DNA of 64,000 nucleotides, taken from the NCBI GenBank assembly GCA_003567005.1, contig PXBF01000068.1, positions 12,392 through 76,391 on the forward strand, read 5' to 3'. Positions within the stretch are counted from its first letter, which is position 1. Every line of letters begins with the position of its first letter. The translations under genes and the position numbers were made by a program. This stretch comes from PVC group bacterium. GTDB taxonomy: Bacteria > Verrucomicrobiota > Kiritimatiellia > UBA8416. Below, one piece after another: positions 11,614 to 64,000 of this stretch. The notes under the pieces were generated by a model. The model was not told the origin of the DNA, searched no databases, and saw only the letters and a program-made list of their open reading frames with translations.

Positions 11614-11655
11614 GCCTCTCCTTATCCTTATGCGCAGCCCACGTCGTGAGCCAGT

Positions 11656-22211: not shown

Positions 22212-23660
22212 ATGCATGATCGTCACATATACCAGGTCTGCACACACACTATGAAAGCTCTACTACACTGGGTTCGCAAACAGGATTTTTCTTATGTATA
22301 TGCCTTACTTGGGGAATCAACCCTAGGGCTCATGTTTATCTTGTATGTAGTGATTGCGCGCGTGGTCGGCCCAGCACAATACGGCATCTTTTCGGCGGCA
22401 GTTGCATTAGGAGGTATCCTCGGCGTCTTCATTCAATTCGGACTACCGGTCCTGTTGACTCGATGTGTTGCCGCACAGCCAACCGAAGGCCCCCGTGCAA
22501 CCATGCGGTTTCTCCTCATACAAGTCGTAAACAGCATCCCCATTTTCATATTCCTTCCGTTATTGACCGCTGCCCTAGGTTTTTCGCGCGAAGGACTGAT
22601 TCTCTGCTACCTTATGGTCGCCGCCGAATTATGCCGGAGTATGAAAATGTCCTGGCGGAGTGTCATGAAAGGGCACAGTTGGTTCAAAATCGAATCCATC
22701 AGTGTATTCCTGGAAAGATCTTTTACGGTGATCTTATCAGCCACTATCCTTTTCGCGACGCATAGCCTTATCCTTACCACGGGAACACTTGTTCTCGCAC
22801 GGATCCTCGATAATCTCGGCACGGGTATCTTTCTAAAACAACGCCTTCGCCTATCTCATAGCCAGCAATGCGAAACCTGGGGCCATACCTACCGCCGAGC
22901 TCTCCCATTTGCCTTACACGGTTTGATGTGGGTCGTGTACTATCAAGTTGACATGATTATGCTCAAAGCGCTCGCACCTGAAGCCGAAGTGGGGTTCTAT
23001 GGCGCAGCATACCGGGTAATGGAAATATTCGGAGCCTTACCGCGCGTTGTATTTTATGTCGCCTTCACGCAGTTCGCAAAATGCCATGCAGAAGACCCAG
23101 CCACAATGCCGCACCATATTTTCAAATCCATGCGAATGCTTTTCTTGCTGATTATCCCCTGCTTGGTCATTGCAGGATACCTTCAACCGCACGTCATCCC
23201 CTTCATGTTCGGCGAGGCTTTTGTTCTTTCGGTTAGTCTACTGGCCGTTCTTTTGCCTGGCCTGGCCATAAAAATGTTCAGCACCTTGAGCGAAGAATAC
23301 TTGTTGGCCACAGAACGGGAAAAGCAACTGCCGTATCTACTACTCATTGTATCGATAACAAATATTGCCACAAACATGATTCTGATTCCACGCATGGGCG
23401 CTATGGGTGCCGCAATCGCCACGGTCGTGAGCGAAGCGGTATTCTGCTTCCTCGGCATCATCATGTTGCTGAAAAGTCCCATTCGCCGCATGGCTGTTGG
23501 CATTTCGATCCTTGTCTTGCCAACAATCGCTATCGCTACGGCACCATCGCTCTACCTTGCCGGAATCCCCATACTCTCCACGCTCGGCATTCTCGCATTT
23601 AGCATATCCGCAGTATGGTTCATGATGAGCACGCTATCCCGGCAAACCCAGTCCCGTTAG
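22212..23660 (+). CDS. Wzx-type oligosaccharide flippase (MOP/polysaccharide biosynthesis protein family); alternative start at 22254
   Basis: 482 aa with about 12-14 TM helices. N-terminal YGIFSAAVALGGILGVF typical of PST/Wzx. Starts immediately after the deacetylase stop. Confidence 0.7.
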   Translation: MHDRHIYQVCTHTMKALLHWVRKQDFSYVYALLGESTLGLMFILYVVIARVVGPAQYGIFSAAVALGGILGVFIQFGLPVLLTRCVAAQPTEGPRATMRFLLIQVVNSIPIFIFLPLLTAALGFSREGLILCYLMVAAELCRSMKMSWRSVMKGHSWFKIESISVFLERSFTVILSATILFATHSLILTTGTLVLARILDNLGTGIFLKQRLRLSHSQQCETWGHTYRRALPFALHGLMWVVYYQVDMIMLKALAPEAEVGFYGAAYRVMEIFGALPRVVFYVAFTQFAKCHAEDPATMPHHIFKSMRMLFLLIIPCLVIAGYLQPHVIPFMFGEAFVLSVSLLAVLLPGLAIKMFSTLSEEYLLATEREKQLPYLLLIVSITNIATNMILIPRMGAMGAAIATVVSEAVFCFLGIIMLLKSPIRRMAVGISILVLPTIAIATAPSLYLAGIPILSTLGILAFSISAVWFMMSTLSRQTQSR

Positions 23661-26218: not shown

Positions 26219-26286
26219 ACATCCATTCCTTTCGTACCCGAAAAAATCAATACATCCTGTTCGCACGGGCCATCGCTCGATGCCGT

Positions 26287-27459
26287 TTAAGCACACAACT
26301 CCTCGTATACCTTGCCAAGCTCGCGCTTGAAGTAGGCAAAATTATATTTTTCCTGTATCAGCCGCATCCCGCCTACTCCCAATTTCTCACGCAGATTCTC
26401 ATCCTCGACCAACCGAAGCATGGCTTGAGCATAGCTGGCCGCATCGGCCGCTCCAAATACGGCTGTCGATTCATTCAAAATTTGACGGTTGGCCTCATTC
26501 TCCGTGGCAACGATCGGACGCGCAGCTTTCAGATAATCAAGAATTTTAAGTGGTGTATTGGTCCCGGCAATTCGTGGTGACAAAAGAATATCCGACCCAG
26601 CCAATATATCCGGCAAACGATCAGGAGGGATCAATCCTGCAAAATGGACACAATGCGCGCAGCCAGCTTGCTGCATCTGCTCCTTACGGGAGGCTATCTG
26701 CGCAGGCGAACCACCGATAATAACAAAACGGGCCCGCGGATCGGCGCGGCAGACAATAGGAATACTCGAAAAAAGCAAATCAATCCCCTGATATACGGCA
26801 AAAGACCCAACGTATGTCAAAAGGATATCGTTCGCATGTTTTACTAATGCTTTCCGTTGGGTAGATGCACACTCCGGCGAACTTTCTGCAAGCGACGAAG
26901 GGATGTCGGGAATTTCAACCACGGTTTTGTCCGGACACAGCGCGGCCGCGTATTCGGCCAATTTGGGTCCTGTGCCAATGACCGCCGTTGCACGCCGAAT
27001 CGTCCATCGTTCCACCGCCGCATACATGCGCATGACAACATTGCGCAAGTACCCCTTACGATAGGAACGCGGATCCGAATGTTTTTCAAAAACAAATGGA
27101 AGGTCATACCGCCGTGCCAACCAAGCACACACAGCACCGGTATCTTCAACCCCATGCAAACATGTATACACTTCGTTGCGTAACATACTACGGGCACGTA
27201 AGAGCAAAAGAACATCAAACAGGATTTTTGAAATGGATGGCCCGATCGGGAGATTTCTGACCCCCGGAATCGACCGGGTGCGCACAATCGTAACCCCCTG
27301 ATAACCGGGGTCTTCACCAAAAGGTGGCACGAGCAGATCGACCACATATCCCAGTTGCACTAATGCCTGTACATCAAAGCCGACGCGAATGGGCGACCCG
27401 CGCCATTGAAAAAAGGGCTGGGAAACAACAAACAAAACGCGCTTTTTAAACCTTGGCAT
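26287..27459 (-). CDS. Glycosyltransferase family 4 (GT-B, group 1)
   Basis: GT4 motifs FVIIGGSPAQ, SDILLSPRIAGTNTPLKILDYLKAARPIVATE. 390 aa. Confidence 0.85.
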   Translation of the reverse strand: MPRFKKRVLFVVSQPFFQWRGSPIRVGFDVQALVQLGYVVDLLVPPFGEDPGYQGVTIVRTRSIPGVRNLPIGPSISKILFDVLLLLRARSMLRNEVYTCLHGVEDTGAVCAWLARRYDLPFVFEKHSDPRSYRKGYLRNVVMRMYAAVERWTIRRATAVIGTGPKLAEYAAALCPDKTVVEIPDIPSSLAESSPECASTQRKALVKHANDILLTYVGSFAVYQGIDLLFSSIPIVCRADPRARFVIIGGSPAQIASRKEQMQQAGCAHCVHFAGLIPPDRLPDILAGSDILLSPRIAGTNTPLKILDYLKAARPIVATENEANRQILNESTAVFGAADAASYAQAMLRLVEDENLREKLGVGGMRLIQEKYNFAYFKRELGKVYEELCA

Positions 27460-47694: not shown

Positions 47695-50600
47695 TTAACG
47701 CCTCAGGCCAAAAGGACTGGACCCCTGACCGGATTGCTCCTGTAACAGTTGGCTTAACCTAGGATGCGACTGAATCGTCATTTGTGCTTCTGTACCGCCA
47801 TAGCGCATAGCTGTGCGCAGGGCATTGCTCGCAGCCTGTACCTCATTGCGCGCAAGCCGAAACTCCGCCAGCTCAATCCACTCTTCCCATGCTTGCGGGT
47901 TCCGATCCAGGTATTTCTCCAAGACCTCGACAGCCGCATCATAATCCTCGATAACGCGCAACGTGGCGAGAGCATCCAGCAGGGCTTCCGGTGCTGCATC
48001 AGAGGGCAAGCGTTCAAGTGCTAACGCAACCACTTCTCCTGCACGCGCACGCATCTCGGCCTGCGCATACATGCGAGCCAACGGCAGCAATAAAAAGGCA
48101 GGCGCCTCAGGGTTCGAAACCAAACTATCCGCCAAGCGGCGAAAACGGTCACGCTGCCCACGATGAAGATACAATTGCGCCAATTGCAGCGCATCTTGCG
48201 CGCCAATGGTTCCCTCCTGCAATTGACGTTCCAGCTCTCTTACGTGGACTTGCATACGCTCCACGCGGTCGACTTGTTCCAAAAAATGATCGATGCGCGT
48301 ATTCGCAGGGTCGCGTTCCTTAAAAGATGACATCAGCTCCCGTGCATCGTCAAAACGAGTTAAACGCATATACAATTCAGCTAATCTGAAATGCGCTTCG
48401 GGACTCAACGGATACAGTGCCAAAGACTCGTGAAAGGCGATTTCGGCTTCACGGATCATACCGCGGTGGGCATATAAGCCTGCAATCGCACTGCGTAATT
48501 TCGAGAATGACTTTTGCCCTGGAACATCACGCCGAAACATCGGGTGCGCTAAAAAGCGTCGCGTGTACCAATCCCAAAAATCTAAATCATCTTCAATCGT
48601 TTCGCGCGGTATCCGATCAAGTGGTTCCGAATTGATCTTCATAATCAAACCATGCGGCGAAAGATACGGATACATCCAACGCATGACATAACTCTCCTCA
48701 ATATAAAAATCATGTCGGTCTCGGTTATGTTCAAATATCTTGCGCGCTAGGATCGCATTAATCTCCATAACCCCCATTACACCGCTTACCTGTACACGCC
48801 CCCCCTCAACCGTAACACCCGGCACCGACTGCCGCACCCCCGTTTCCATTTCTCGGACAAATTGCCTAAAAGCTGCGGCATTGTCCGCCACACTCGGAAT
48901 CCAGATGTCATTGCCATATAAATCACGCATAACAGCCATATACGTGCCATCTGCTAATGCATTCTGCGTAATTAAATGAACGTCTGGACGGACATCGGCG
49001 GAGTAAATCATGTAGGTCGGCACAAAACGGCCGGGATCCGTTCCCCCAAAGAAAATAGCATCAGGACCCATTTCTGAGGGAAAAGACGGATTGGGCAAAG
49101 GCTCTTCATCTGGCGCCAGCTCCTCTAGGATTCCCACGGCACCGCGTAACGCATAATGACCAAACTGCCATCCAAAATCACGGTTGTGTTGATCCGCTCC
49201 ACCATAAACCAAAAGTAAACGCTCATTAAAAGCATTCGACCAAATAGGAACCACAGGTAATGCCAAGGCAATAAGGAGTGCGAAAGAACTGGCACCCGGG
49301 GAAACATGCCGTAGCTTGTCATCCAAATACGCCAGCAGAAATACCAAGCCGTAACCTACCCAGAAAGAAAACAAAAGATGCGACGATATGAATTTTACGC
49401 GTTGAATAAACGTGTCTTGAATGTCCATTTGCAAATCGGCCAAGGCAATTAGCCCCAAACTGAGCGTAACAAATGCAATCAGGGTAGACACCATCCAACG
49501 CTGTACACCGGCATCAACCGTCAGTATAAAACGATCTTTCAGCGAAACCACTTTTAGCGCCAACCATATAAGTAGCACTGGCACAACCAGAAGCGCAGGA
49601 ATAAGCAGTAATTCGGCCGCAAACCCGGGAGGCAAGGGATCCCCTGTCCGCAACGGTTCAATGACGGACAAGAACTTACGCATCACCAGTGCGAGATAAA
49701 TGAGGCCAATCCCGACTACAACCAAAACGGCTGTAATGCGTTCCCATGCTCTCGCGCCACGAGCGAATACATGCTCCTCCCATAACCCCCTGAAGCGTGT
49801 AACAAGCGTCATCGTTGCCCCTATAGCCAAAAGCAAAAAGACCCCGAATGAAGGTATTTTATAAAAGGGGAAATACTGAGCCAGCGGCAACAATAACAGC
49901 GCAAACAGCGTGAGAAGAATACCCCATTTCATCGCATCAAATGGAGGTTCGTTGCCTTTCCGGTTCCAGCGCCACGTACAAAATGGTAGAAATGCAACCA
50001 GCGACACGAACATGGTAAAGTTCAACCGCAAATCGGCCAGATATGTGCCGATTTGCTCAACAAACCGCCAGGAAAAGATGTCAACCGGGGCAATTTCCTC
50101 ATACTGTCCGCGACTGATGGCATGCATAAAACCATCCCATGTGCGCGGATATCCCCAGTTCATGGGGGGATTACGCAAATCCGACACGATCGGCATGTAG
50201 GCATAGACCGCAACACCGACTTGCGCCAGCAAAATCGTGATGGCTACCGTTTTACCGCGCGGGAGAAAATAATACGAAAGGATCAGCAAAGTACCATTGA
50301 GTCCCAAATACCAATACCACAACGGCTCCGTGGGATGCTCAATGGCTGGCAGAATGCCCACGTAAACCAAGGCAACGGCCCCTACCAAAGGACCGCCGAC
50401 AAGCGCAAAATCCCGAAACAATTCGAAATCCTTGAACAATACGACGATTGCCAAGGCTAAGGCCGCAAGCAATAGCACCTGGTAATTTGTCAAACCAATA
50501 CCAAAAACAAGCGCAAGCCAATATAAATACTTGTCTTTCGGGCGATTGAGCCACAGATACACGAAAAGCAAGACAAAGACTAAAAAGAACGCATTTAGAC

Positions 50601-51096
50601 TATATACCTCGATAATTGTCGACTGGGACCACATGATGGGCGTAAAGGCAAAAAACAGACTACTGGAAACACCCGCAACAAAACAAATAGCATTTTCCAT
50701 CTTCTTGGTCATGTCATGCGAAATGGCCTGCGAGAAATACAAAACATCGCGGCCTGACCGGCATACGAGTATGGCCGTCAAGGCCGCAGCCAGGGCACCG
50801 AAAACCGCAGAAACAAAACCGATACCCCACGCAGGATTCGGTTGTCCCCGGAACGTAATGAAAGAAAATACCCTTGCAAAAACCCACGCAATCATGGTCC
50901 AGCTCGGATATCCTGGCGGATGGGGAACACCTAGCCAGTCAGCGGCAACTGCGAATTCGCCTGAATCTTCTAGCGTTACAGTTGGAGCCAATGTAATTGT
51001 GTAGACAACAAGTGAAATGAACCCCGAAATCCAAAATGCCAACCAATCAATGCGCCGGAAAAAAGGCCCCTGCTTTATGTTATTTGATGCATGCAT
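47695..51096 (-). CDS. DUF2723 (TMEM260-like, GT-C-fold putative O-glycosyltransferase) membrane protein with a C-terminal TPR-repeat domain
   Basis: LEDSGEFAVAADWLGVPHPPGYP motif near the first loop. About 20 TM helices. The C-terminal roughly 350 aa are TPR-like. The start ATG at 51096 is preceded by GGGAGG. The ORF-track extension to 51342 was rejected as low-complexity/Cys-rich. Confidence 0.6.
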   Translation of the reverse strand: MHASNNIKQGPFFRRIDWLAFWISGFISLVVYTITLAPTVTLEDSGEFAVAADWLGVPHPPGYPSWTMIAWVFARVFSFITFRGQPNPAWGIGFVSAVFGALAAALTAILVCRSGRDVLYFSQAISHDMTKKMENAICFVAGVSSSLFFAFTPIMWSQSTIIEVYSLNAFFLVFVLLFVYLWLNRPKDKYLYWLALVFGIGLTNYQVLLLAALALAIVVLFKDFELFRDFALVGGPLVGAVALVYVGILPAIEHPTEPLWYWYLGLNGTLLILSYYFLPRGKTVAITILLAQVGVAVYAYMPIVSDLRNPPMNWGYPRTWDGFMHAISRGQYEEIAPVDIFSWRFVEQIGTYLADLRLNFTMFVSLVAFLPFCTWRWNRKGNEPPFDAMKWGILLTLFALLLLPLAQYFPFYKIPSFGVFLLLAIGATMTLVTRFRGLWEEHVFARGARAWERITAVLVVVGIGLIYLALVMRKFLSVIEPLRTGDPLPPGFAAELLLIPALLVVPVLLIWLALKVVSLKDRFILTVDAGVQRWMVSTLIAFVTLSLGLIALADLQMDIQDTFIQRVKFISSHLLFSFWVGYGLVFLLAYLDDKLRHVSPGASSFALLIALALPVVPIWSNAFNERLLLVYGGADQHNRDFGWQFGHYALRGAVGILEELAPDEEPLPNPSFPSEMGPDAIFFGGTDPGRFVPTYMIYSADVRPDVHLITQNALADGTYMAVMRDLYGNDIWIPSVADNAAAFRQFVREMETGVRQSVPGVTVEGGRVQVSGVMGVMEINAILARKIFEHNRDRHDFYIEESYVMRWMYPYLSPHGLIMKINSEPLDRIPRETIEDDLDFWDWYTRRFLAHPMFRRDVPGQKSFSKLRSAIAGLYAHRGMIREAEIAFHESLALYPLSPEAHFRLAELYMRLTRFDDARELMSSFKERDPANTRIDHFLEQVDRVERMQVHVRELERQLQEGTIGAQDALQLAQLYLHRGQRDRFRRLADSLVSNPEAPAFLLLPLARMYAQAEMRARAGEVVALALERLPSDAAPEALLDALATLRVIEDYDAAVEVLEKYLDRNPQAWEEWIELAEFRLARNEVQAASNALRTAMRYGGTEAQMTIQSHPRLSQLLQEQSGQGSSPFGLRR

Positions 51097-51301
51097 ACCT
51101 TTTGTGGATTCCTCCCAAATAAATGTAACTACATATAAAATCGCTCTTTTTTTGCGTTTTGTTTGTACCACGATGCGTCTGCTAGATGCAAGAATCAAGC
51201 CCATCCAGTTGTGTGTGAATTGACAGCATCCCAAAGACCCTTTACCATAACAACAGTTTTTACAACAAAACGCCACAAACAGGAAAAAAGGAACGGTGTA
51301 C

Positions 51302-51691
51302 ATGTTCATCAAAGTACGAAATATGATAGCTATCGCCAGCATGATAGGAACGATTTTTGCGTTGACCGGTTGTGAGACAGAACCATCAGATCAGATTGCG
51401 ATCTCTGTTTCGCCCAACGCCGCAAACGTAAGACGAGGACAATCACAAGAATTTTCTGTATCCGGTTGGCAAGATTACACGTGGGAAATCTACGAGGAAC
51501 GAGGTGACAATGTTGGGGTCTTATCCACCCGTAAAGGGGAGAGAACCGTTTACACTGCGGTGAGTGGCACCAACGACGTAGTCGTTCTGCGCGCATATGC
51601 AAACGTGAGCACTGCAATCACGAATAGGGACGATGAAGGGCAGGAACGCTCACGGGTATTCGCAGAAGCCATCATCTCACATCGCCCGTGA
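51302..51691 (+). CDS. Small lipoprotein of unknown function
   Basis: Signal peptide with lipobox ALTGC. AGGAA RBS 10 nt upstream of the ATG at 51302. Confidence 0.5.
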   Translation: MFIKVRNMIAIASMIGTIFALTGCETEPSDQIAISVSPNAANVRRGQSQEFSVSGWQDYTWEIYEERGDNVGVLSTRKGERTVYTAVSGTNDVVVLRAYANVSTAITNRDDEGQERSRVFAEAIISHRP

Positions 51692-53782: not shown

Positions 53783-54004
53783 CATCCGTTCCTATAGCTC
53801 GCCTTTTCTCCTATAGAACAAGCATATAATCAAGCAACTATACATTCATATTCACAGATCCAAAATACAACAGAATGTAAAATGGTATCGCTGCTAATCC
53901 GAGTCGTAGTAGAGAGATAAATCGGCGATACGAACGGAGCCAAGATACAAAAGTGTAAAACGATTTACTTGCACTTCTCCCCCGATCCTGACATCCTACG
54001 CACC

Positions 54005-54592
54005 ATGAAAAAACAAAAACAACAGGAAAAGCCGCCCACACCACCAGCCGAATGGGTGGAATTATACAGTGACTATTTATACCGCTATGCCCTCATGCGC
54101 TTAAAAGACCCGATTAATGCAGAAGACGCTGTACAAGAAACCTTCCTGGCAGGCATTAAAGGACTCAAACAATTCGACGGACGCGTTGATGTCAAGTATT
54201 GGCTGCGCGGTATCTTGCGTAATAAAATCGTCGATTATATCCGCAAGAATACACGCGAGCACCCTGTCAATAATGACGACGGACGGGATATCGTAGAAAG
54301 CTATTCCTTCGAAAAATTCGGCATCGCCGAGCGATCGCCGAAACCATGGCAATTTGCGCCTGAACGGGAATTTGAAAAAGGGGAATTCTGGGAAGCATTT
54401 GAAAAGTGCCTATCCAAACTCAGCGATACAATGCGTCAGGCGTTTGTCTTGAAAATGGTCGATGGAATGGATTCAGAATCGGTATGTAAGGCATTAAATA
54501 TCCAGCCGAACAATTTGTGGGTCTTAAATCATAGGGCAAGAGCGCAATTGAAAGCTTGTCTGGAATCTAACTGGGATCGCGAAGAGGATTAA
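54005..54592 (+). CDS. ECF-type RNA polymerase sigma-70 factor
   Basis: Region 2 LYSDYLYRYALMRLKD...DAVQETFL. Region 4 RQAFVLKMVDGMDSESVCKALNIQPNNLWVLNHRARAQL. The first in-frame ATG at 54005 was used; the ORF-track start is a TTG. Confidence 0.8.
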   Translation: MKKQKQQEKPPTPPAEWVELYSDYLYRYALMRLKDPINAEDAVQETFLAGIKGLKQFDGRVDVKYWLRGILRNKIVDYIRKNTREHPVNNDDGRDIVESYSFEKFGIAERSPKPWQFAPEREFEKGEFWEAFEKCLSKLSDTMRQAFVLKMVDGMDSESVCKALNIQPNNLWVLNHRARAQLKACLESNWDREED

Positions 54593-54853
54593 ATGCTAAC
54601 CTGTAAACAAGTATCTAAGGCTCTTGCCGAATCTGATTATAAAGAGCTGCCTCTATACAAGAGGTTGCTACTACGCTTTCATATTACCATCTGTTTTATT
54701 TGTAAAGGCTACAACAAAAACGTAATGCGCTTTCACGATATGGCGCGTGCATTTCGGCGCTATGAAGACGAAAAAACAGCCGAGGCCGCCCCCGAGAATG
54801 CAAAGAAAAAATGGATCCAAAGCATTGAGGTTAACGCTTCCACGAAAGACTAG
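54593..54853 (+). CDS. Putative zinc-finger (ZAS-type) anti-sigma factor
   Basis: Start ATG directly abuts the sigma stop. GAAGAGGA RBS. C4 ... H30-x3-C34-x2-C37 (HITICFIC) matches the ZAS H-x3-C-x2-C signature. 86 aa. Confidence 0.55.
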   Translation: MLTCKQVSKALAESDYKELPLYKRLLLRFHITICFICKGYNKNVMRFHDMARAFRRYEDEKTAEAAPENAKKKWIQSIEVNASTKD

Positions 54854-55934: not shown

Positions 55935-56198
55935 CTAACCTAATGGCAATTCGTCGGCATCCGGTGTGTCGCCATGCGGAAAGGACTCCGTTTCTACAGG
56001 CCCCTCCTTGGTTAGAAGCTTCTCAATCTTACGTTCAACTTCATCAAGTTTTCCCGAACAGAATTTGATCAACTTCTGTCCCTCCTCAAACCGGGCAATC
56101 ATATCGTCCAAACTTAATTCGCCACTTTCCATACCAGCGACAATCTCTTCCAGACGTGCCAATGACTTTTCAAAAGACACATTCTTTTCATTGCTCAT
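55935..56198 (-). CDS. xseB: Exodeoxyribonuclease VII small subunit
   Basis: SFEKSLARLEEIVAGMESGELSLDDMIARFEEGQKLIKFC is a textbook XseB helix-hairpin. 87 aa. Sits 3 nt downstream of xseA. Confidence 0.8.
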   Translation of the reverse strand: MSNEKNVSFEKSLARLEEIVAGMESGELSLDDMIARFEEGQKLIKFCSGKLDEVERKIEKLLTKEGPVETESFPHGDTPDADELPLG

Positions 56199-56201
56199 AC
56201 C

Positions 56202-57557
56202 CTATCCTTTCTCCTTGCCCTCTACAACACGCGCCAATACTTCGCCTTTCGCCAATCGCGTCCGTACATGATCACCCGCTCTAACAGCAGAAGCGTCCCG
56301 CAAGATCGTTCCATCATCCAGTCGCGTAACCGAATATCCACGTTGCAAAACAGCTAAAGGATTCAGTGCCCGGAGTTGCAACGTCAAACGTTGCACCTCT
56401 TGTGTCGCACGCTGCTGCCGTAATCGTAACGCCTGCTCCATATGGCGCGAAGAAGTCTCGAGCCCCTGACGTCCTGCTTGCATAGCCGAACGACTGCGCT
56501 GCTGCAAGGTACTGCTGACCCAATCCAATGATTGCTGCGCCGACTGCATACTTCCGCGTAATTCACGACGCATGCGCTGATCCACAGTATCCATGCGTTC
56601 CCGATACCGCGCGACGGCATTGCTGGGCTCCCGAAATACATAGTGCTGTGCGGAACGCGTCAAACGATGTTTTGCCCGCTCCAGCACATGCTGCATGCAC
56701 CCCTCCAAGCGCCGACCGTATTCCGCAAGCATATCCGTAAAGGCATCTTTACGACCAACCACCAATTCTGCTGCCGCCGATGGCGTAGGAGCGCGCACAT
56801 CTGCCACGAAATCACAAATAGTAAAATCGATTTCATGTCCAACAGCAGAAATAACGGGAATCTGCGAACGATCAACAGCCCGAGCAACCACCTCCTCATT
56901 GAACGACCACAAATCCTCCAAACTGCCGCCACCCCGACCAACAATCAGAACATCCAAACCGCCAATTTCATTCAACCGTCCGATCGCTGCGGCCACTTCC
57001 TCTGCAGCACCATCGCCTTGCACCTTTACGGGCGCTAGTAATACATGAAGATTGGGGAAACGACGGGTCACAACGTTCAAAATATCGCGAATAGCCGCCC
57101 CCGTTGCAGATGTAACCACCCCTACATGCTGAGGAAGCAAGGGTAAGGGCTTTTTGCGCGATGCCGCAAAAAGCCCTTCCTCTGCCAATCGTTTCTTCAA
57201 AGCTTCAAACTGCGCTTGCAGGGAACCTTTTCCGCCAGGTTCCATGCGGCGAATTAAAATCTGATAATTGCCGCGTTTTTCATATACGGTAATTTCACCA
57301 AAAGCACGTACTACATCGCCACTTTTGGGGGTAAACCCCAGCCCCCGCTGACTCCCCTTGAACATGACAGCCTGAATTTGCGCCCCTTCATCCTTGATCG
57401 TAAAATACATGTGCCCTGAGGCAGGACGCGCCAAGTTGGAAATTTCCCCCTCGACCCCGACAGCACCGAATCCTCTCTCAAGCGTCCCCTTGATCCGGCG
57501 TGTCAACTCGCTGACACTCCATATTGAATCATTTCTCTCCATCAAACCTTTGCTCAC
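56202..57557 (-). CDS. xseA: Exodeoxyribonuclease VII large subunit
   Basis: N-terminal OB-fold WSVSELTRRIKGTLE...VEGEISN...GHMYFTLKD-like. Catalytic region GRGGGSLEDLWSFNEE. 451 aa. Confidence 0.85.
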   Translation of the reverse strand: MSKGLMERNDSIWSVSELTRRIKGTLERGFGAVGVEGEISNLARPASGHMYFTIKDEGAQIQAVMFKGSQRGLGFTPKSGDVVRAFGEITVYEKRGNYQILIRRMEPGGKGSLQAQFEALKKRLAEEGLFAASRKKPLPLLPQHVGVVTSATGAAIRDILNVVTRRFPNLHVLLAPVKVQGDGAAEEVAAAIGRLNEIGGLDVLIVGRGGGSLEDLWSFNEEVVARAVDRSQIPVISAVGHEIDFTICDFVADVRAPTPSAAAELVVGRKDAFTDMLAEYGRRLEGCMQHVLERAKHRLTRSAQHYVFREPSNAVARYRERMDTVDQRMRRELRGSMQSAQQSLDWVSSTLQQRSRSAMQAGRQGLETSSRHMEQALRLRQQRATQEVQRLTLQLRALNPLAVLQRGYSVTRLDDGTILRDASAVRAGDHVRTRLAKGEVLARVVEGKEKG

Positions 57558-57698: not shown

Positions 57699-58229
57699 CT
57701 ACAAATTCTTCTTCTCGAAGAATACAAAGACGCCAAGCACAAGACACCAGAACGCCACCACGACAAACCAAGGATTCAGCCCAACCATTTCTGGAACCCC
57801 CAAGTTACCAAAATCTTTCCAAGCCATCACAGTGCGCGAAAGCCAAGGATAAAGTTCAGCAAAAACGGCAGCCCCGATCACCATTCCGATAACGGCAAAT
57901 ATAGCATGCCATCGGCCTTCCCCAATCGCCCCCATAGAGGTTCCCGGACAATAGCCCATGATCGCCCAACCAATACCGAAAAGCAAACCGCCGATGATTA
58001 CAGCCCCCATGTTCATGGGTTTGTGACTGAAAGAGTCTATCACGCCAAGTTCAACAAGGAGATGCAAACCCACACTACCAACGATAATGGCTGACAACAT
58101 GAACTTGAGAATCGTCATATCTTTCAGCAACATCGCACCCAGTTGCTTCTCATAGCGAAGCACACGCCCCTTCTGCAACAAAAACCCAAAAATCACACCT
58201 GTAACCAATCCTAGAATCAGCCTATCCAT
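57699..58229 (-). CDS. YeeE/YedE-family (DUF395) sulfur-compound transporter half
   Basis: Conserved GYCPG motif (AIMGYCPGTSMGA). 4 TM. Internal start MDRLILG chosen. Confidence 0.7.
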   Translation of the reverse strand: MDRLILGLVTGVIFGFLLQKGRVLRYEKQLGAMLLKDMTILKFMLSAIIVGSVGLHLLVELGVIDSFSHKPMNMGAVIIGGLLFGIGWAIMGYCPGTSMGAIGEGRWHAIFAVIGMVIGAAVFAELYPWLSRTVMAWKDFGNLGVPEMVGLNPWFVVVAFWCLVLGVFVFFEKKNL

Positions 58230-58773
58230 GACGTTTCCCTCCTTTGAATACGAGTTGTGCAACGACTACACCTGTACCGAAGAAAAAGGCCAACGCCACA
58301 AAACCGCTTACGGAAAGCTGCATCAGGCCACTTAGACCATGACCACTTGGACATCCATCGGCTAACCGTGCACCGATCATGGCAATCATACCGCCGAGCA
58401 CTGCGCCGACCGCACGTACGCCTATAGAAGATCCAAAGCGATCACGCCAAATAGGGGGTGAGGATTCAGTCTCAAAACTGCGATCTGTCAAAGATGCCAG
58501 CAAGGCCCCAATCAAGATTCCGATTACAATCATGTACTGCCAATCAATCTGCGGCGGGGTTTGCTGATAATAAGGGTTCGCCGCCACACGATCGGGCAAA
58601 ATGGCACGATGGACATAACCCGCTGCCCGCACGAACGTAGTCGAAGCCCCCAGAAAACTGGTCTGCCCAGTTATTCCGGTCGTTGCCCAAGCCGAACCCA
58701 CTGCAAGTAACCCTACGAGTGCACCTGCCAGATAGGGACTCCAGCCGCCACCTTCCTGCTTCCATTTCATCAT
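58222..58773 (-). CDS. YeeE/YedE-family (DUF395) sulfur-compound transporter half
   Basis: Conserved GCPSGHG motif (LADGCPSGHGLSG). 4 TM. 8-nt overlap with the downstream half gene. Confidence 0.7.
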   Translation of the reverse strand: MMKWKQEGGGWSPYLAGALVGLLAVGSAWATTGITGQTSFLGASTTFVRAAGYVHRAILPDRVAANPYYQQTPPQIDWQYMIVIGILIGALLASLTDRSFETESSPPIWRDRFGSSIGVRAVGAVLGGMIAMIGARLADGCPSGHGLSGLMQLSVSGFVALAFFFGTGVVVAQLVFKGGKRHG

Positions 58774-58963
58774 GACCTCCCCCTGTAATTCACATGTCTA
58801 TCTCAAAACAACCACCGACACTTTACGGTAGTTGCAAAGGGCATTAAGTTTCACAATGTGCTAATTAAACAAAAAGGACATAAACGTACAAGACTATTTT
58901 ACTCATCTTACATAAAACCATGCCCATTCACGCAAAACGTAGTGATCCGATAGGGTGATCGTA

Positions 58964-58972
58964 CCCCCCCCC
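58964..58972. repeat. Poly-C(9) homopolymeric tract in an intergenic region
   Basis: Nine consecutive C between the comEC 3' end and the YeeE/YedE promoter region. Confidence 0.6.
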
Positions 58973-58996
58973 AGAACGCAATTGTTTTATGGTACG

Positions 58997-61900
58997 CTAA
59001 AGTCCAATGGCAACATCGGATACCGTCTCATCAAGACCGCCCTGTGTGCGATTCCGTTGCGCTTGCGTATCGATCTGATACGTCGCACCATCGGACGTAA
59101 TGTAGATGGCCTGATCGCGATCGGTGCTCCATACGCGGACTCCATAATCTATATAGAATCGCCGGGTTACCCCGAACCGATCGAGTGCATCGCGCCCCTC
59201 GCGTCCCAGTACGGGACGTGGGTTACCGAACTCCAGAATGATATCTTCTGGTTCCACGGCAGCAAGCAATACCCCCGTCGAATCCTGTAATACACTGCGC
59301 ATACGCTGTACATTTCCTTGAACCGTGGGAGGAAAAGGCGCAGCCGCTTGATAAGGCGCAACCAATATATTTGCGCGTATATGGGCTGGATCCGCTGACA
59401 TAGCAAAATCGCGCTGCGCTTCGAGTTCCATCGCGCCAGGTAGTAGCATGGAAAATGCGCCATATAAAATGCGTACTTGCATCGAACGTGTATACCATGG
59501 GCCCTGCTCTGGCAGAACGGAGACCACTTCAATACGAAATATTCCCCCATCATGCTCTTCCTCAACCAGTACCGTCGGCTCTTCCACAGGCGTTGCCATC
59601 AGATTCCACGAAGCCCAACGGTTAAACCATGTGCCCTCTCGCTTGTGTAAGCGCTCCAACACAGATGGGCGTTGCGGCCATTGCGGATCCCCTGCCCAAA
59701 CAGAAAAGATGTCATCCGCGCGCGGGTGAGAATGATTTTCACGATCAATACTAGTAATTTCCGATCGTTCAAATGGTAAAATCAGGCTTTTTATACGCTG
59801 ATGCATCAGGATATAGGATAAACCGCCCGCTCGTTCTGGACGTGGGGATGAGGCTATGAACATATCCAGTTTGCCAATACGTTGATGCGAAAAGGTCGGC
59901 AAGATCGTTCGCATGGCCTCATTGCGCCGCCCCCGTTCATACTCCACAAACCCACTATCTATTAAATAATGCGCACCACCAGGACTCTGAACATGAATAG
60001 CACTACCATACCCCACCGGCAAAACGGTTACCTCCAAGGGATCTGAGCTATCAGAACGCCACGGTGTACCACCCCTCACGAGCAGGAGTAAGAAACCGAC
60101 CATAGCAATACCATAGGGGATCCAACGCTTGGGACCCTTCCATGAAACACCAAGTTTTCCGAGCAGTCGGGATCCATATCTTTGCACGGGATCCGGCCAA
60201 ACCAGCAGGGCAAGTACGCCGTAATAAAAGAGAAGCGCATAACCGGATGGACGCGGAACAAAAGGATGCGGGAACACGCGTGCAAAAACATAGGCCAACC
60301 ATAGGAACAAACTCGCCGCCAACCAATTCGCGGCATTCAGGAACAAGGCCAGAAGTGGCCCCAGCCCCGGAATCAACCCCAATAGGCCAGCGAGCACGCC
60401 AAGCTGTACCACCACGCCGATAAGCGGGATCGCAATCAGATTCGCATACATCCCCCCAAATGGCCACTGATTGAAATAATAGGCCGATAACGGAATCATC
60501 ATGCCGATTTGAATCGCAATCTGCGCGGCCATAAAGGTACCGATACTCTCTGGAATACGAGTAAAGCGGAATCGGGAATCTATGCCGATTCCTGTACGAT
60601 CACAGGCTCTCGCCACCCAAAAAACCAGCCCCCAAAACATGCTCCATGGTATCCAGAATTGCGCGGTTGTGACCAAAGCCCAGCGGATCGCGGCAAACAG
60701 GGTTGTCAGAACCGTGCATAGGATAACGGATGCAAAACAATTACCGCGCAACCGGCATAATTGCGCATAAATCGGTCCCGTCAACAAGGCCAGTGACAAA
60801 ATGGCACCAAAGGAAAGCGTAAACGATGGATCGACAACGACGAGCGGATTATGAACCAAAATCAGCGCTGCGGCGATTGGAACACCGGTTAATACGGATG
60901 AGCGTAACCCTTTATCCAGATAGGCCCATGTCAACAAAAAGAGGCTATTCATAATAACAGCCCGAAGTGTGGAAGGCCGCGCACCCGTTATGATCGCAAA
61001 TATAACCAATACGCCAATAACCACAGGCACAAACACTTGGCGGGGAAATTTGATCAAAGAAAAGATTGCAACAAACATAACCGTCAGAATCGTCACATGC
61101 AGACCGGAAACGGCCAGAACATGATTCACCCCGGAGGCACGGAAATCCGATACGATCTGCGCCTCGCTAGGGGCCAGACCAAATCGCTGCATCCAACCCG
61201 GACCTTCCCCGGGAAACATCACACCATGTAATCCATAACGTAAGCCAAGCGTTACACCGCCTAGAAAGGCGGACTGCGGATACGGCATGGTTGCCTTGAA
61301 GATACCCAGCATGCGATCACGTAGCCCTAAAGAAAATGCCACCAGTGGGTTCCCACTTCGTTGTGGCTGCCCCGTAGGAGCCAATAAAGACACTGGAGAC
61401 GGCTCTCTTGGGCGCGCATAGGGTCGCATAACCGCATAGATATTATGGTTTTGCATGAAACGGCGCGCGTCAAAACCACCTTCTACCGATGGACCACGCG
61501 CAACGGTCAATTCGCCCCGTATCACTATATCAGCCCCATAGGCTTCTGTTTGCGCCAAACGCGTAAAATTCTCGAGATTCGGATGTACCGTAACCTGAAT
61601 ATCCCCACCTTCCACACGATAGTATGGACCGCCAGCGGGATACTGAATGTAAGCAGGTTCGACCGTAAGAACGCTCTTGAAGTCATACACATTGGGATCC
61701 TGCGCAATGCGCCCTAACACGGTTACGTCAGACTGGCCGCGAGCAGGTCGGACAAAAGACCCGATATGATTAGATAAGCGAAAAACCGTCAGCGGTAGAT
61801 CCGCATCACCAACATCCCACAGTACATCATCTATACGACTAAACGGTTGATCCACACGAAACGTGGCACCTGCAGGTGTATGCGCCGGAATGTCCACTGT

Positions 61901-62386
61901 AGCACTCTTGATGGGCATCCTGTGCTCGTTAAACACCCAGCGTCCCGCTTCATCCAGCAAAGGATTTTCATCATAATCTAACACAGCTTGACGTGCTACG
62001 AGTTCGCCGGCAAAACGAAAACCTACCGCTTCCTCCACATCCGCATCTACACGGACAATCAGTCGGCTCGTATCGCGAAGTGGTTCGCGTTCAATATAGC
62101 GGCCATTTTCTATCTGCCCGATGCGCCGATCTGGAACACGATACGCAACCGAATAACGTGTGTATCCAACAAGAACAGCCAAAACCACAAGAACATACCA
62201 TAACGTGAGATTCCACAGATTGCCTTTGGAACGCCAACCCAACCAGATGGCCAAGACAAGAGTGACACCCAGACCTGTCAGAATCCAATAGCGCGTTGCA
62301 TGCGATAGCACCTCAACCGGAAGAAGCATGGCTAGGATAAGCCCGCCAATAAACAAGTAACAGGTAGTGATCAGCTTAGTGTTCAT
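58997..62386 (-). CDS. comEC: ComEC/Rec2-family DNA internalisation channel protein with a degenerate (pseudo) metallo-beta-lactamase domain
   Basis: Competence-domain hallmark GVNHVLAVSGLHVTIL. N-terminal DUF4131-like region. C-terminal MBL-like region (aa 784-1105) with motif 1 VLPVGYGSAIHV..YLIDSG, but the HxDxDH position reads SSPRPERAGG. 1129 aa. Confidence 0.75.
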   Translation of the reverse strand: MNTKLITTCYLFIGGLILAMLLPVEVLSHATRYWILTGLGVTLVLAIWLGWRSKGNLWNLTLWYVLVVLAVLVGYTRYSVAYRVPDRRIGQIENGRYIEREPLRDTSRLIVRVDADVEEAVGFRFAGELVARQAVLDYDENPLLDEAGRWVFNEHRMPIKSATVDIPAHTPAGATFRVDQPFSRIDDVLWDVGDADLPLTVFRLSNHIGSFVRPARGQSDVTVLGRIAQDPNVYDFKSVLTVEPAYIQYPAGGPYYRVEGGDIQVTVHPNLENFTRLAQTEAYGADIVIRGELTVARGPSVEGGFDARRFMQNHNIYAVMRPYARPREPSPVSLLAPTGQPQRSGNPLVAFSLGLRDRMLGIFKATMPYPQSAFLGGVTLGLRYGLHGVMFPGEGPGWMQRFGLAPSEAQIVSDFRASGVNHVLAVSGLHVTILTVMFVAIFSLIKFPRQVFVPVVIGVLVIFAIITGARPSTLRAVIMNSLFLLTWAYLDKGLRSSVLTGVPIAAALILVHNPLVVVDPSFTLSFGAILSLALLTGPIYAQLCRLRGNCFASVILCTVLTTLFAAIRWALVTTAQFWIPWSMFWGLVFWVARACDRTGIGIDSRFRFTRIPESIGTFMAAQIAIQIGMMIPLSAYYFNQWPFGGMYANLIAIPLIGVVVQLGVLAGLLGLIPGLGPLLALFLNAANWLAASLFLWLAYVFARVFPHPFVPRPSGYALLFYYGVLALLVWPDPVQRYGSRLLGKLGVSWKGPKRWIPYGIAMVGFLLLLVRGGTPWRSDSSDPLEVTVLPVGYGSAIHVQSPGGAHYLIDSGFVEYERGRRNEAMRTILPTFSHQRIGKLDMFIASSPRPERAGGLSYILMHQRIKSLILPFERSEITSIDRENHSHPRADDIFSVWAGDPQWPQRPSVLERLHKREGTWFNRWASWNLMATPVEEPTVLVEEEHDGGIFRIEVVSVLPEQGPWYTRSMQVRILYGAFSMLLPGAMELEAQRDFAMSADPAHIRANILVAPYQAAAPFPPTVQGNVQRMRSVLQDSTGVLLAAVEPEDIILEFGNPRPVLGREGRDALDRFGVTRRFYIDYGVRVWSTDRDQAIYITSDGATYQIDTQAQRNRTQGGLDETVSDVAIGL

Positions 62387-62576
62387 CCCCGCCTTCCTCC
62401 CAACCGGTTTCCGGATAATAGGCCCGATTGGATTCCCAAATGGGCCCTGCCGTTATGTCCCCGGATGCCCAAGCCCGAACAGTACCACGGTAATCAGGAT
62501 GCAAGAATAGAACCACACCACCAATCACGAGCGCCCCAGCAAGAATATATAGTAAAAGGCGTACACCGCGCTCCAT
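62376..62576 (-). CDS. Mini membrane protein (single TM helix)
   Basis: 66 aa, MERGVRLLLYILAGALVIGGVVLFL. Overlaps the comEC start by 11 nt. Translational coupling suggests it is real. Confidence 0.4.
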   Translation of the reverse strand: MERGVRLLLYILAGALVIGGVVLFLHPDYRGTVRAWASGDITAGPIWESNRAYYPETGWEEGGDEH

Positions 62577-62579
62577 ACA

Positions 62580-62789
62580 TCATCCCTTTCGACCCGGCTC
62601 TTCCGGATCCTTCACACGTAATAGCGTAATAAAAATAAAAGCAAAGGGTACAAATGGAAAAAAATACAGAATACCTTCACGCGTATGAAAAACCCGCACA
62701 GACCCAGATGCCAACCAGAGTAAATAGAGCAACATTCCCACAGCATTACAAATCAGAATACAGGTCCGGATGATATCACGCTCCATCAT
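62580..62789 (-). CDS. Mini membrane protein (two TM helices)
   Basis: 69 aa, MMERDIIRTCILICNAVGMLLYLLWL...FFPFVPFAFIFITLL. Its start overlaps the NERD gene stop by 4 nt. Confidence 0.4.
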   Translation of the reverse strand: MMERDIIRTCILICNAVGMLLYLLWLASGSVRVFHTREGILYFFPFVPFAFIFITLLRVKDPEEPGRKG

Positions 62790-63541
62790 GACATCTCCAG
62801 AAACATATGTAAAACAGCATCAACGGTATCCTCCGATAAAGCAGCCGGTAAACGGTGTGTCGCAATAAAACGCGCTGCAGAATCTGGCTGCAAGATAGGA
62901 ACAGGCGCATCCGCTATGCTCACTTTCGTGTGTGGCGATCGAAAGACAATAAGAGGAATAACCGAAGCAGATGACAGACCGACATTTCGTAACATACCCC
63001 CCAGAATCTGACTACTACGCTGCACTTGCCGGATGGGATTCGGTACCCGCAACGGTTTGCTCCCACGTGTCTTTTCTTGCTCCCAATAGGGCTGATCGGC
63101 TACACCGGAAATCTGTCCCCGCCAGTTTTTTGTCTCAATCACAAAAATCCCATTGGGAGAGACAACGACATGGTCAAGTTGTGCGCGCTGCAAGCCACTC
63201 CGCACAATTTGATCATTGAAAATGTAGTGCGTGTTATCCAACGCGCGATCCAATGTGCGCGTAACGGTTGCTTCTCCCTGCAAACCGGCCTGAACATTGC
63301 CTGCCTCCTGTAGATTTTGCTGGATCCGCAAGCGGTGTGCATAACCAGCAACCAGCCCGATTACGCCAAGAATGAAAATACCGGGCGCACCAGCCACCAG
63401 CCAGCGCACCGCCCCCATCACAGTAACAAGAGCAGCAAGACCGAATTCAATGGGAACCCAGCGTTGCAAGGCGCGCGACTCCTGCAACATACGCTTATGT
63501 TTACGCGATAACGAGGTCTCTTCTGTAAGGATGCGCGCCAT
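62786..63541 (-). CDS. Membrane-anchored NERD (nuclease-related domain) protein
   Basis: Two N-terminal TM helices, then the NERD signature GEATVTRTLDRAL...IFNDQIV...QLDHVVVSPNGIFVIETKNWRG. Confidence 0.7.
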   Translation of the reverse strand: MARILTEETSLSRKHKRMLQESRALQRWVPIEFGLAALVTVMGAVRWLVAGAPGIFILGVIGLVAGYAHRLRIQQNLQEAGNVQAGLQGEATVTRTLDRALDNTHYIFNDQIVRSGLQRAQLDHVVVSPNGIFVIETKNWRGQISGVADQPYWEQEKTRGSKPLRVPNPIRQVQRSSQILGGMLRNVGLSSASVIPLIVFRSPHTKVSIADAPVPILQPDSAARFIATHRLPAALSEDTVDAVLHMFLEMS

Positions 63542-63543
63542 AT

Positions 63544-64000
63544 TTATCCCTCGGCATTCTCGGTACGCCCCAGATGCTCAACGACCTCAGCACGTGCGGC
63601 GCGCCGCAGACGCTCTGCAATACGGATCAAAACCCGATCTCCAACCTGCGTATCGGGCACAAATACAACGAGCCCATTAATGCGGGCAACCCCATCGTTT
63701 TGCGGATTACGGCGATCCCGTTCCACAATGGTAACGATGTATTCATCACCTACCGCAACGGTTTGTCCGGATCGCTCAGATGAAGCCGTTTCCCGCTCCG
63801 CTCGTGATGCTGGATCCGCACGGTCCAGCCAATCAACAACCACACCATCTGCCGCGCTACGCCGCAAACGCGTGATCTCAATAACAACCTCGTCTCCCAC
63901 AACCGTATCCGGCACAAAAACGATGAGACCATTGATGCGCGCGATACCGGCAACACCATCTCGTGATTGATCCCCAATGCGAACGCGATACCGACCGCCG
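63544..64000 (-). CDS. Tandem TRAM-domain protein, 5'-truncated by the window edge
   Basis: At least two repeats of the TRAM signature DGVARINGLVVFVPDTQVGDRVLIRI and GIARINGLIVFVPDTVVGDEVVIEI. The frame stays open to the window end. The ORF-track start at 63915 is a GTG inside a repeat. Confidence 0.55.
   Translation of the reverse strand, partial: GGRYRVRIGDQSRDGVAGIARINGLIVFVPDTVVGDEVVIEITRLRRSAADGVVVDWLDRADPASRAERETASSERSGQTVAVGDEYIVTIVERDRRNPQNDGVARINGLVVFVPDTQVGDRVLIRIAERLRRAARAEVVEHLGRTENAEG

Follow-up and report, generated by a model that had tools for sequence, protein, structure and literature searches.

What does a ComEC channel do in the company of a string of TRAM domains and a membrane-bound NERD nuclease? 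The question is raised by a 64,000-nucleotide stretch of contig PXBF01000068.1 (positions 12,392 to 76,391, forward strand) from a PVC group bacterium of the Kiritimatiellia (GCA_003567005.1), hereafter the window, which ends in five closely packed genes encoding a TRAM-repeat protein, a NERD protein, two small membrane proteins that we call miniA and miniB, and a long ComEC homolog. In natural transformation, DNA is brought across the inner membrane universally by ComEC, whose beta-lactamase-like (MBL-like) domain degrades the second strand and whose known partners are ComEA on the outside and ComFA, ComFC and DprA on the inside. The five genes are a conserved unit, and we posit that they specify a co-translated five-protein module for the uptake and breakdown of extracellular nucleic acid around a divergent ComEC channel, a reading to which we give about as much credence as doubt. 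The purpose of such a module would probably be DNA scavenging ("nutritional competence") rather than genetic transformation.

The operon occupies the last 5 kb of the window, in whose coordinates positions are given, with all five genes on the minus strand (Table 1). As read from the sequence, the stop codon of the TRAM gene meets the NERD start in a TAA-at-ATG arrangement with a 2-nt gap, NERD and miniA overlap by 4 nt (ATGA), miniA and miniB are separated by 3 nt (TGA-tgt-ATG), and miniB and ComEC overlap by 11 nt (ATGAACACTAA), with a purine-rich stretch ahead of each start. The window cuts the TRAM gene, about 245 nt of which lie beyond position 64000. The original prediction, made from the letters of this DNA, had placed all five packed genes correctly and erred on the miniA-miniB gap, which it gave as 2 nt instead of 3 nt. 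Its domain calls are borne out by Pfam matches to TRAM, NERD, Competence and DUF4131, all above the gathering scores, and so is its remark that the arrangement departs from the canonical comEA-comEB-comEC operon: none of the four proteins encoded upstream of ComEC in the operon matched a helix-hairpin-helix (HHH) or dCMP-deaminase family of Pfam or NCBIfam. A consensus scan of 58600..64000 for promoters and terminators returned sites no more numerous than in shuffled sequence, and Rfam gave no match 5′ of the operon in eight relatives, nor at any position in the window, and hence no riboswitch lead.

A protein search with NERD collected about 55 relatives, nearly all of 251-254 aa and 37-64% identical, the named ones of which are labeled Kiritimatiellae or Kiritimatiellia. 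A scan of genome contigs with the single NERD protein as query gave no match, and an exact-sequence look-up of this protein and of its 100% identical database entry returned no contig; further loci came from a ComEC-alignment scan in which each GTDB species was represented by one genome, followed by family hidden Markov models (HMMs) for all five proteins, and from scanning metagenome contigs with a NERD profile. The order TRAM-NERD-miniA-miniB-ComEC is found in about 20 contigs of Kiritimatiellia and of metagenome-assembled genomes (MAGs) mislabeled "Verrucomicrobia", with the full five-gene module in the window and loci L001, L008, L010-L014, L021 and L027 and the same order in metagenome contigs L090-L097, L099 and L101. 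In the metagenome scan, TRAM precedes and miniA-miniB-ComEC follows every NERD-family hit that scored above 200 bits on a sufficiently long contig. Proteins of different module copies are only 37-65% identical and the flanking genes are unrelated: L001, on a 1.5-Mb contig with a NERD protein 41% identical, reads TRAM(306)-NERD(251)-81-69-ComEC(1159) with MetRS upstream and an M50 peptidase and urease downstream; L008, with a NERD protein 48% identical, reads TRAM(370)-NERD-68-68-ComEC(1158) between PFOR and a PMT_2 gene; and the module of the window is flanked by sulfur transport genes and xseAB. The genes downstream in the window (two Sulf_transp halves, xseA, xseB and pdxH) are not kept beside the module elsewhere. 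Such low identity together with such differing flanks argues against chance juxtaposition. Hence, the coupled unit that had been proposed from this one locus is a conserved one, and an order private to this strain, which the original prediction had allowed for, is not what the neighborhood comparison found. Two distant NERD proteins (P0056 and P0059, 25-34% identity) with unrelated neighborhoods fall outside the family.

The ComEC protein is at once a clear homolog and a divergent one. It matches Pfam Competence (PF03772; 123.3 bits versus a cut-off of 23, E 1.5e-35) and DUF4131 (PF13567; 37.4 bits versus 31.6, E 2.7e-9), the latter aligning to the OB region of the solved full-length ComEC 30bt_A, and passes the NCBIfam ComEC_N-term domain model TIGR00360 (44.6 versus 36.5); against the ComEC/Rec2 equivalog TIGR00361 it scores 81.2 bits, below the cut-off of 190.05. 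A profile built from 54 relatives aligns to 30bt_A (E 1.8e-56) across the OB, channel and MBL domains, covers residues 393-628 and 660-796 for the C-terminal MBL-like domain, and matches the isolated nuclease domain 9ic4_A (E 3.3e-32); PF00753 matches in a few of the relatives. The channel motif GVNHVLAVSGLHV is conserved. Module carriers have ComECs of about 1,130-1,180 aa, approximately 330 residues longer than 30bt_A, and in the alignment the extra length falls ahead of the OB fold and within the channel and MBL domains, as insertions.

It is the metal site of the MBL domain that has gone. The canonical KVTFIDVGQGDA and VISTHPDADHIGG are aligned against "kvtvLsvgYGss" and "liltsprperaaG", and in the comparison of 30bt_A with the long-ComEC profile, DVGQGD and THPDADH stand against sVGYGS and TSPrPER. 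In the window protein, the metal sites read VGYGS, S-x-R-x-E-R, A and Y/Q, with only the Glu retained. None of 120 family members has the full metal motif: H598 is replaced by Ser in 116/120, D602 by Glu in 111/120 and H603 by Arg in 112/120, position 600 is never Asp (0/120), and D700 is retained in 84/120. Across loci L001-L037, the motif is absent in all 28 long ComECs in which it could be aligned; as a control, HxDxDH is retained in all of the approximately 45 ComECs of about 800 aa with an aligned motif from other phyla (L038-L086, a handful being unaligned), and nearly all of these keep DVGQGD. In the Moorella-type domain, H598, D600, D602, H603, D700 and H725 coordinate Mn2+ or position the substrate, and alanine mutants of most metal-coordinating residues of canonical ComEC are virtually inactive (PMC12455585). 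At the Pfam level, ComEC proteins are known to have gained and lost the Lactamase_B domain (PMC6299819). Judged by these alignments, the long ComEC is a predicted pseudo-nuclease, which keeps the OB, channel and MBL-like folds and has lost the metal-binding nuclease residues. The idea that the loss is specific to NERD-carrying genomes was rejected, as it extends to all long ComECs, including those with no adjacent NERD.

Beside this dead site lies an intact one. The NERD protein matches PF08378 (82.3 bits versus a cut-off of 22.1, E 4.7e-23), and E90, D123, H124, E136, T137 and K138 are invariant in the 53-56 aligned relatives; E90...D123...E136-x-K138 makes up a complete PD-(D/E)xK signature and supplies the putative catalytic residues. 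The AlphaFold2 (AF2) model, with a predicted local distance difference test (pLDDT) score of 91.8, has antiparallel helices 10-50 and 54-100, the tip of which is a hydrophobic hairpin of residues 28-69, with the helical stalk reaching to about residue 100, followed by an alpha/beta domain; the best nuclease-fold matches of the model are VC1899, AF1548, Can2, the Upx restriction endonuclease, NucS and MGME1. Across the family, the 27-aa N-tail has a mean of 6.4 Lys and Arg residues (K+R), compared with 0.9 for the hairpin loop and 3.7 for the stretch just after the second transmembrane (TM) helix, a distribution that by the positive-inside rule most likely puts the nuclease domain on the cytoplasmic side of the membrane. 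In canonical ComEC, the OB and nuclease domains are periplasmic, with the nuclease at the periplasmic mouth of the channel (PMC13539106), so that a cytoplasmic NERD, as predicted, would be no like-for-like replacement. The original suggestion that NERD supplies a nuclease activity is strengthened by the destruction of the ComEC site, which that prediction had not noticed and next to which the NERD site is intact, but does not extend to a simple substitution for the ComEC domain. Two further features of this protein are an invariant Glu32 (63446..63448) in the middle of TM helix 1 and a nearly invariant N-terminal peptide, MARILTEE, both of which are possible candidates for contact points with a partner membrane protein.

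The TRAM protein is present at full length in the protein database as P0268 (233 aa, 100% identical to the part in the window, from an NCBI contig of 171,793 bp), which matches Pfam TRAM (PF01938) in two stretches (63.4 bits versus 21, E 1.8e-17) and passes NCBIfam PyTRAM (96 bits, cut-off 85). It comprises an N-tail, a TM helix (18-40), a linker, TRAM module 1, a second linker and TRAM module 2; the AF2 model (pLDDT 84.5) agrees, with helix 18-40 joined by a disordered linker to two beta-barrels (pLDDT >90), which Foldseek relates to the archaeal 1yez (42% identity, TM-score 0.80) and to the TRAM domains of RlmCD and RumA. Nearly all family members (95/97) share one N-terminal TM helix. The number of modules varies (2 in 8 proteins, 3 in 82, 4 in 7 and 5 in 1) with Pro/Ala-rich linkers between them, the middle module of the three-module relatives having been lost from the window protein. 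Stand-alone archaeal TRAM proteins (1yez and 1yvc; PyTRAM RNA chaperone), to which single modules are 33-42% identical with TM-scores of 0.77-0.80, are soluble, cytoplasmic and about 70 aa long, whereas here the modules are repeated and membrane-tethered. The family is small and lineage-restricted: a search of 1.84 billion representatives gave 83 clusters at E <= 1e-30, beyond which the nearest relatives, at about 1e-6, are the TRAM domains of RlmD. TRAM-NERD fusions were sought among the long family members and none was found, the added length being added TRAM modules.

On average, acidic residues number 2.8 after the TRAM helix versus 0.8 before it, with K+R at 1.9 on each side, and the charges in the window protein are +4/-1 before and +1/-3 after. 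The acidic enrichment after the helix weakly favors an N-in, C-out protein with periplasmic modules. The competence DNA receptor ComEA is either periplasmic or membrane-anchored; that of Gram-positives has an N-terminal membrane anchor and a DNA-binding region (PMC13539106), and the TRAM protein resembles it in having a single N-terminal TM anchor and a predicted nucleic-acid-binding region and in being encoded in a ComEC operon; a shared role in holding DNA at the channel entrance is possible. The claim that TRAM repeats stand in for ComEA is made plausible by this common layout, with the qualification that the orientation is weakly predicted. Unlike ComEA, the TRAM protein has 2-5 TRAM beta-barrels in place of a helix-hairpin-helix and is at most an analog, not a homolog.

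The two small genes are conserved as proteins (HMM E 1e-25 to 1e-34), and neither miniA nor miniB matched a Pfam, NCBIfam or PADLOC family. miniA has two predicted TM helices and homologs in all module loci, as well as in L016-L018, L020 and L029, where TRAM and NERD are absent and a putative cation-efflux gene sits between miniA and miniB. By eye, the open reading frame (ORF) between miniA and miniB-ComEC has a cation-diffusion-facilitator-like N-terminus (L016:6863-7741; L029:3545-4438). miniB is a membrane protein that spans the bilayer once, has an acidic tail at its C-terminus and carries the motif HPDYR...W.G...SPIW.SN..YYP, and the overlap of its stop with the ComEC start, of 4, 11 or 17 nt, is kept in ten loci. 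miniB-like genes also adjoin long ComECs in other phyla (L022, L024, L025, L028 and L030, with L035 and L023 recognized by eye), whose MAGs are labeled Riflebacteria (L030), Schekmanbacteria (L035), CSSED10-310 (L028) and unclassified bacteria (L022-L026). The microprotein of these phyla, about 50-100 aa long with the motif NPDYR...SN..YYP, overlaps or abuts the start of the long ComEC. We predict from these junctions that miniB is translationally coupled to ComEC across phyla, and it is a candidate for an unrecognized ComEC subunit conserved in several of them.

In these other phyla, the long ComEC also keeps distinctive neighbors. In L022, L023, L024, L026 and L031, ndk lies directly upstream of the miniB-long ComEC pair, and in L028 (817-3031) and L035 (5121-7434) that place is taken by deoC followed by a pyrimidine-nucleoside phosphorylase gene; DeoC and the phosphorylase constitute a deoxynucleoside catabolic route. 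The long ComECs of the ndk and deo loci have lost the MBL site wholly or in part (part being retained in L035), and neither ndk nor deoC nor pyrimidine-nucleoside phosphorylase is upstream of ComEC in any of about 50 canonical ComEC loci. The ndk and deo neighbors, taken with the predicted cytoplasmic NERD of Kiritimatiellia, therefore point to DNA import for breakdown and not for recombination.

As a mechanism, we envisage that the TRAM string, in the periplasm with its N-terminus inside and its C-terminus outside, would act much like ComEA and catch nucleic acid, single-stranded or frayed, at the entrance of the channel, that ComEC with miniA and miniB as small subunits would pass one strand inward and leave the other undegraded, and that NERD, which its two-helix hairpin would keep on the cytoplasmic side of the membrane, would cut the entering strand, the products of which would enter nucleotide salvage or catabolism. 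Alternatively, a cytoplasmic TRAM string might act as a single-strand-binding ratchet beside NERD. The substrate may be single-stranded on arrival, nucleases encoded elsewhere may have fragmented it, or RNA may be what is taken up.

Several points weigh against this uptake-and-breakdown module. The activity of the nuclease, the binding of nucleic acid, the assembly of a complex and the membrane topology are all predicted; should NERD be cytoplasmic, the operon would have no substitute for periplasmic strand degradation, and duplex unwinding would go unexplained. The orientation of the TRAM protein is weakly predicted, with equal K+R on both sides of the helix, its modules carry little net charge (mean +0.4), and TRAM domains are known above all for binding RNA. 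The ndk and deo neighborhoods lie in other phyla, with several of the loci possibly sharing ancestry, and the L035 ComEC still has a partial S-x-E-x-D-H metal motif. The linkage is also phylogenetically narrow, since TRAM-NERD joins ComEC in one Kiritimatiellia subclade only: no TRAM-NERD adjoins ComEC in the sister lineages (L016-L020, L029 and L170), among which L016-L018, L020 and L029, with ComECs 39-40% identical, keep miniA and miniB without TRAM or NERD nearby, and L170, a 4.04-Mb genome with a ComEC 37% identical, has only a miniB-like gene ahead of ComEC. Conversely, in a high-GC lineage (L098:3428-6669), a five-module TRAM gene is followed by two NERD paralogs with no adjoining ComEC. 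The first of these has a degenerate ExK (LNTLNW) and the second an intact one (VESKYW), which suggests an active/inactive NERD pair and a TRAM-NERD unit able to stand alone. Because of its absence next to ComEC in the sister lineages and its presence without ComEC in L098, the TRAM-NERD pair could function independently of ComEC. The arrangements in L170, in L098 and in the sister loci with miniA and miniB only are the grounds on which we read the module as layered, with miniB-ComEC as its presumptive old core, miniA as a Kiritimatiellia-wide addition and TRAM-NERD as a tight pair that joined in one subclade.

We tentatively extend the proposal, with more doubt than confidence, to a multi-phylum ComEC branch dedicated to DNA as food, in which a long pseudo-enzyme ComEC and a co-translated miniB of about 50-100 aa would be served by phylum-specific processors, namely ndk or deoC with nucleoside phosphorylase in several candidate phyla and a periplasmic TRAM receptor with a cytoplasmic, membrane-tethered NERD "shredder" in Kiritimatiellia.

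Among the alternatives, the one that fares best, unlikely as we consider it, is a genuine transformation apparatus, in which TRAM replaces ComEA, NERD, in generating single strands, replaces the dead MBL domain or acts like EndA or NucA, and the imported strand is recombined. The well-conserved channel and OB domains of ComEC, the ComEA-like look of an anchored multi-module binder and the apparently intact nuclease encoded beside a nuclease-dead ComEC would all suit such an apparatus. Moreover, membrane-anchored accessory nucleases are established in competence, as EndA in Streptococcus pneumoniae and NucA in Bacillus subtilis, and NERD resembles these in being a separate, membrane-tethered predicted nuclease beside ComEC. 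It differs from them in having a putative PD-(D/E)xK-like fold rather than a His-Me finger or NucA-type one, and a hairpin anchor that predicts a cytoplasmic and not an extracellular domain. To degrade a strand at the channel mouth, the domain would have to lie on the opposite side, and the transforming strand would be at risk from a nuclease placed at the cytoplasmic exit. The related long ComECs that adjoin ndk or deoC with nucleoside phosphorylase, and the score of the window ComEC (81 versus 190 bits) below the cut-off of the NCBIfam competence ComEC equivalog, likewise speak against transformation.

Rather improbable in our estimation is that TRAM and NERD are a separate membrane-associated RNA or DNA processing pair, which shares a transcript with ComEC in one clade and has no link to transport. 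The TRAM-NERD-NERD locus without adjacent ComEC, the sister lineages with miniA and/or miniB and ComEC but no TRAM or NERD alongside, and the classical RNA-binding role of TRAM, the closest structures here being archaeal TRAM RNA chaperones and RlmCD/RumA, are what this explanation has in its favor. It does not sit well with the NERD loci above 200 bits, in all of which, where there is enough sequence, only a few nucleotides of overlap or gap join the pair to miniA-miniB-ComEC, despite protein identities of 37-65% and changing flanks, or with the membrane anchors that both TRAM and NERD share with ComEC. An anti-phage or anti-plasmid defense module with NERD as its effector is very improbable and was rejected. 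NERD domains do occur at the N-termini of the kinases PglW (of BREX) and MAD6, with partial matches at 9.3e-8 and 3e-13, respectively; however, the PADLOC and NCBIfam matches (PglW, MkoA and MAD6) involve only the NERD domain, fall far below the cut-offs (49 versus 460 and 23 versus 990 bits) and come without partner genes, as TRAM, miniA, miniB and ComEC match no PADLOC model, and the neighborhood is one of stable chromosomal housekeeping genes and no defense island. A fortuitous juxtaposition or annotation artifact, for which nothing speaks except the small size of the two mini ORFs, is refuted by the gene order in about 20 contigs, the HMM-level conservation of those ORFs and the conserved start/stop overlaps, and has a negligible probability.

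With respect to known systems, the long ComEC shares with canonical ComEC/Rec2 (30bt and 9vc6; Moorella, Bacillus and Legionella) the domain order of N-terminal TM region, OB (DUF4131), Competence and MBL-like fold, and differs in being about 330 residues longer, in having lost HxDxDH and DVGQGD clade-wide, in scoring below the TIGR00361 cut-off and in being always preceded by an overlapping miniB. Finkel and Kolter reportedly proposed in 2001 that the competence-gene homologs of Escherichia coli serve the use of DNA as a nutrient. Nutritional DNA use through these homologs is discussed in PMC3330819. Our proposal is similar in that a ComEC homolog would import DNA for catabolism and not for recombination; unlike the E. 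coli case, which involves canonical com homologs, it concerns a distinct dead-nuclease ComEC clade with dedicated partners and, in other phyla, linkage to ndk or to deoC with nucleoside phosphorylase. In the literature library searched, nothing joined ComEC with NERD, ComEC and "TRAM domain" occurred together only in one unrelated paper, and nothing relevant came up on Kiritimatiellia with ComEC or extracellular DNA, in line with the earlier remark that no TRAM-NERD-ComEC arrangement had been described. The domain families and the ComEC homolog at the center are known; it is their combination that is new, and this is not a categorically new system.

For the transformation field, the interest lies in a pseudo-nuclease ComEC clade that has lost its catalytic site yet is strongly conserved, in its four new candidate partners, and in a neighborhood argument for nutritional DNA uptake; the pseudo-nuclease domain is itself a natural experiment on the non-cutting roles of the ComEC C-terminal domain. 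If the module imports DNA for catabolism, it would offer a concrete, testable genetic system for the debated "DNA for food" role and would tie abundant polysaccharide degraders of sediment and gut to the turnover of extracellular DNA. The multi-phylum food-import branch, if true, would be the first dedicated nutritional-competence machine and the first ComEC partner set without ComEA.

Table 1. Genes, domains and sites of the TRAM-NERD-ComEC operon in window coordinates, with miniB-like genes at other loci in the coordinates of those loci.
Feature	Position	Strand	Basis
TRAM gene, 3′ part (152 codons)	63544..64000	-	ORF open at window end; Pfam TRAM
TRAM module 1	63817..63999	-	Pfam/AF2
TRAM module 2	63562..63750	-	Pfam/AF2
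NERD gene, 251 aa	62786..63541	-	Pfam NERD
NERD TM hairpin, residues 28-69	63335..63460	-	Hydrophobicity, AF2 model
NERD domain, residues 86-200	62942..63286	-	Pfam
Putative catalytic residues D123 and E136-x-K138 (site with E90)	63122..63178	-	Alignment
miniA, 69 aa, starts MMERDII	62580..62789	-	ORF and family HMM
miniB, 66 aa, starts MERGVR	62376..62576	-	ORF and family HMM
ComEC gene, 1129 aa	58997..62386	-	Pfam Competence and DUF4131
ComEC MBL region	59000..60034	-	Alignment to solved ComEC
VGYGS at DVGQGD site	60002..60016	-	Alignment
SSPRPER at T-H-x-D-x-D-H site	59831..59851	-	Alignment
PGAMEL at D700 motif	59423..59440	-	Alignment
APYQAA at PHHGS site	59342..59359	-	Alignment
miniB-like genes	L022:527-685, L024:7486-7680, L028:3061-3369, L030:7546-7713, L035:7438-7629		Family HMM/by eye

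Elsewhere in the window, xseB and xseA (55935..57557), which encode the single-strand-specific exonuclease VII, lie on the ComEC strand 1.4 kb downstream of ComEC, with a split pair of Sulf_transp (YeeE/YedE-like) genes at 57699..58773 in between; the proximity of xseAB to the module is probably coincidental, since it is not conserved at other module loci. Two very large predicted protein O-mannosyltransferase-like membrane proteins are encoded, one with TMEM260-like and TPR regions (47695..51342, 1215 aa) and one of the PMT_2 family (17025..19769, 914 aa), and a PMT_2 gene also follows ComEC in L008. A gene for a DUF6785/DUF6784 protein (660 aa) adjoins one for a DUF6288, PDZ and HEAT protein (877 aa) at 9631..14289, next to a hybrid histidine kinase, both families being uncharacterized. 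Minus-strand ORFs of 657 and 879 aa (247..2220 and 23657..26296) matched nothing in Pfam at E <= 1e-5. An ECF-type sigma factor (Sigma70_r2, r4_2) is followed without a gap by an 86-aa ORF resembling an anti-sigma factor (53969..54853). Finally, in the urease cluster downstream of the L001 module, an antisense match to the Rfam family 5′ ureB sRNA (95 bits) is found at L001:16586-16917.

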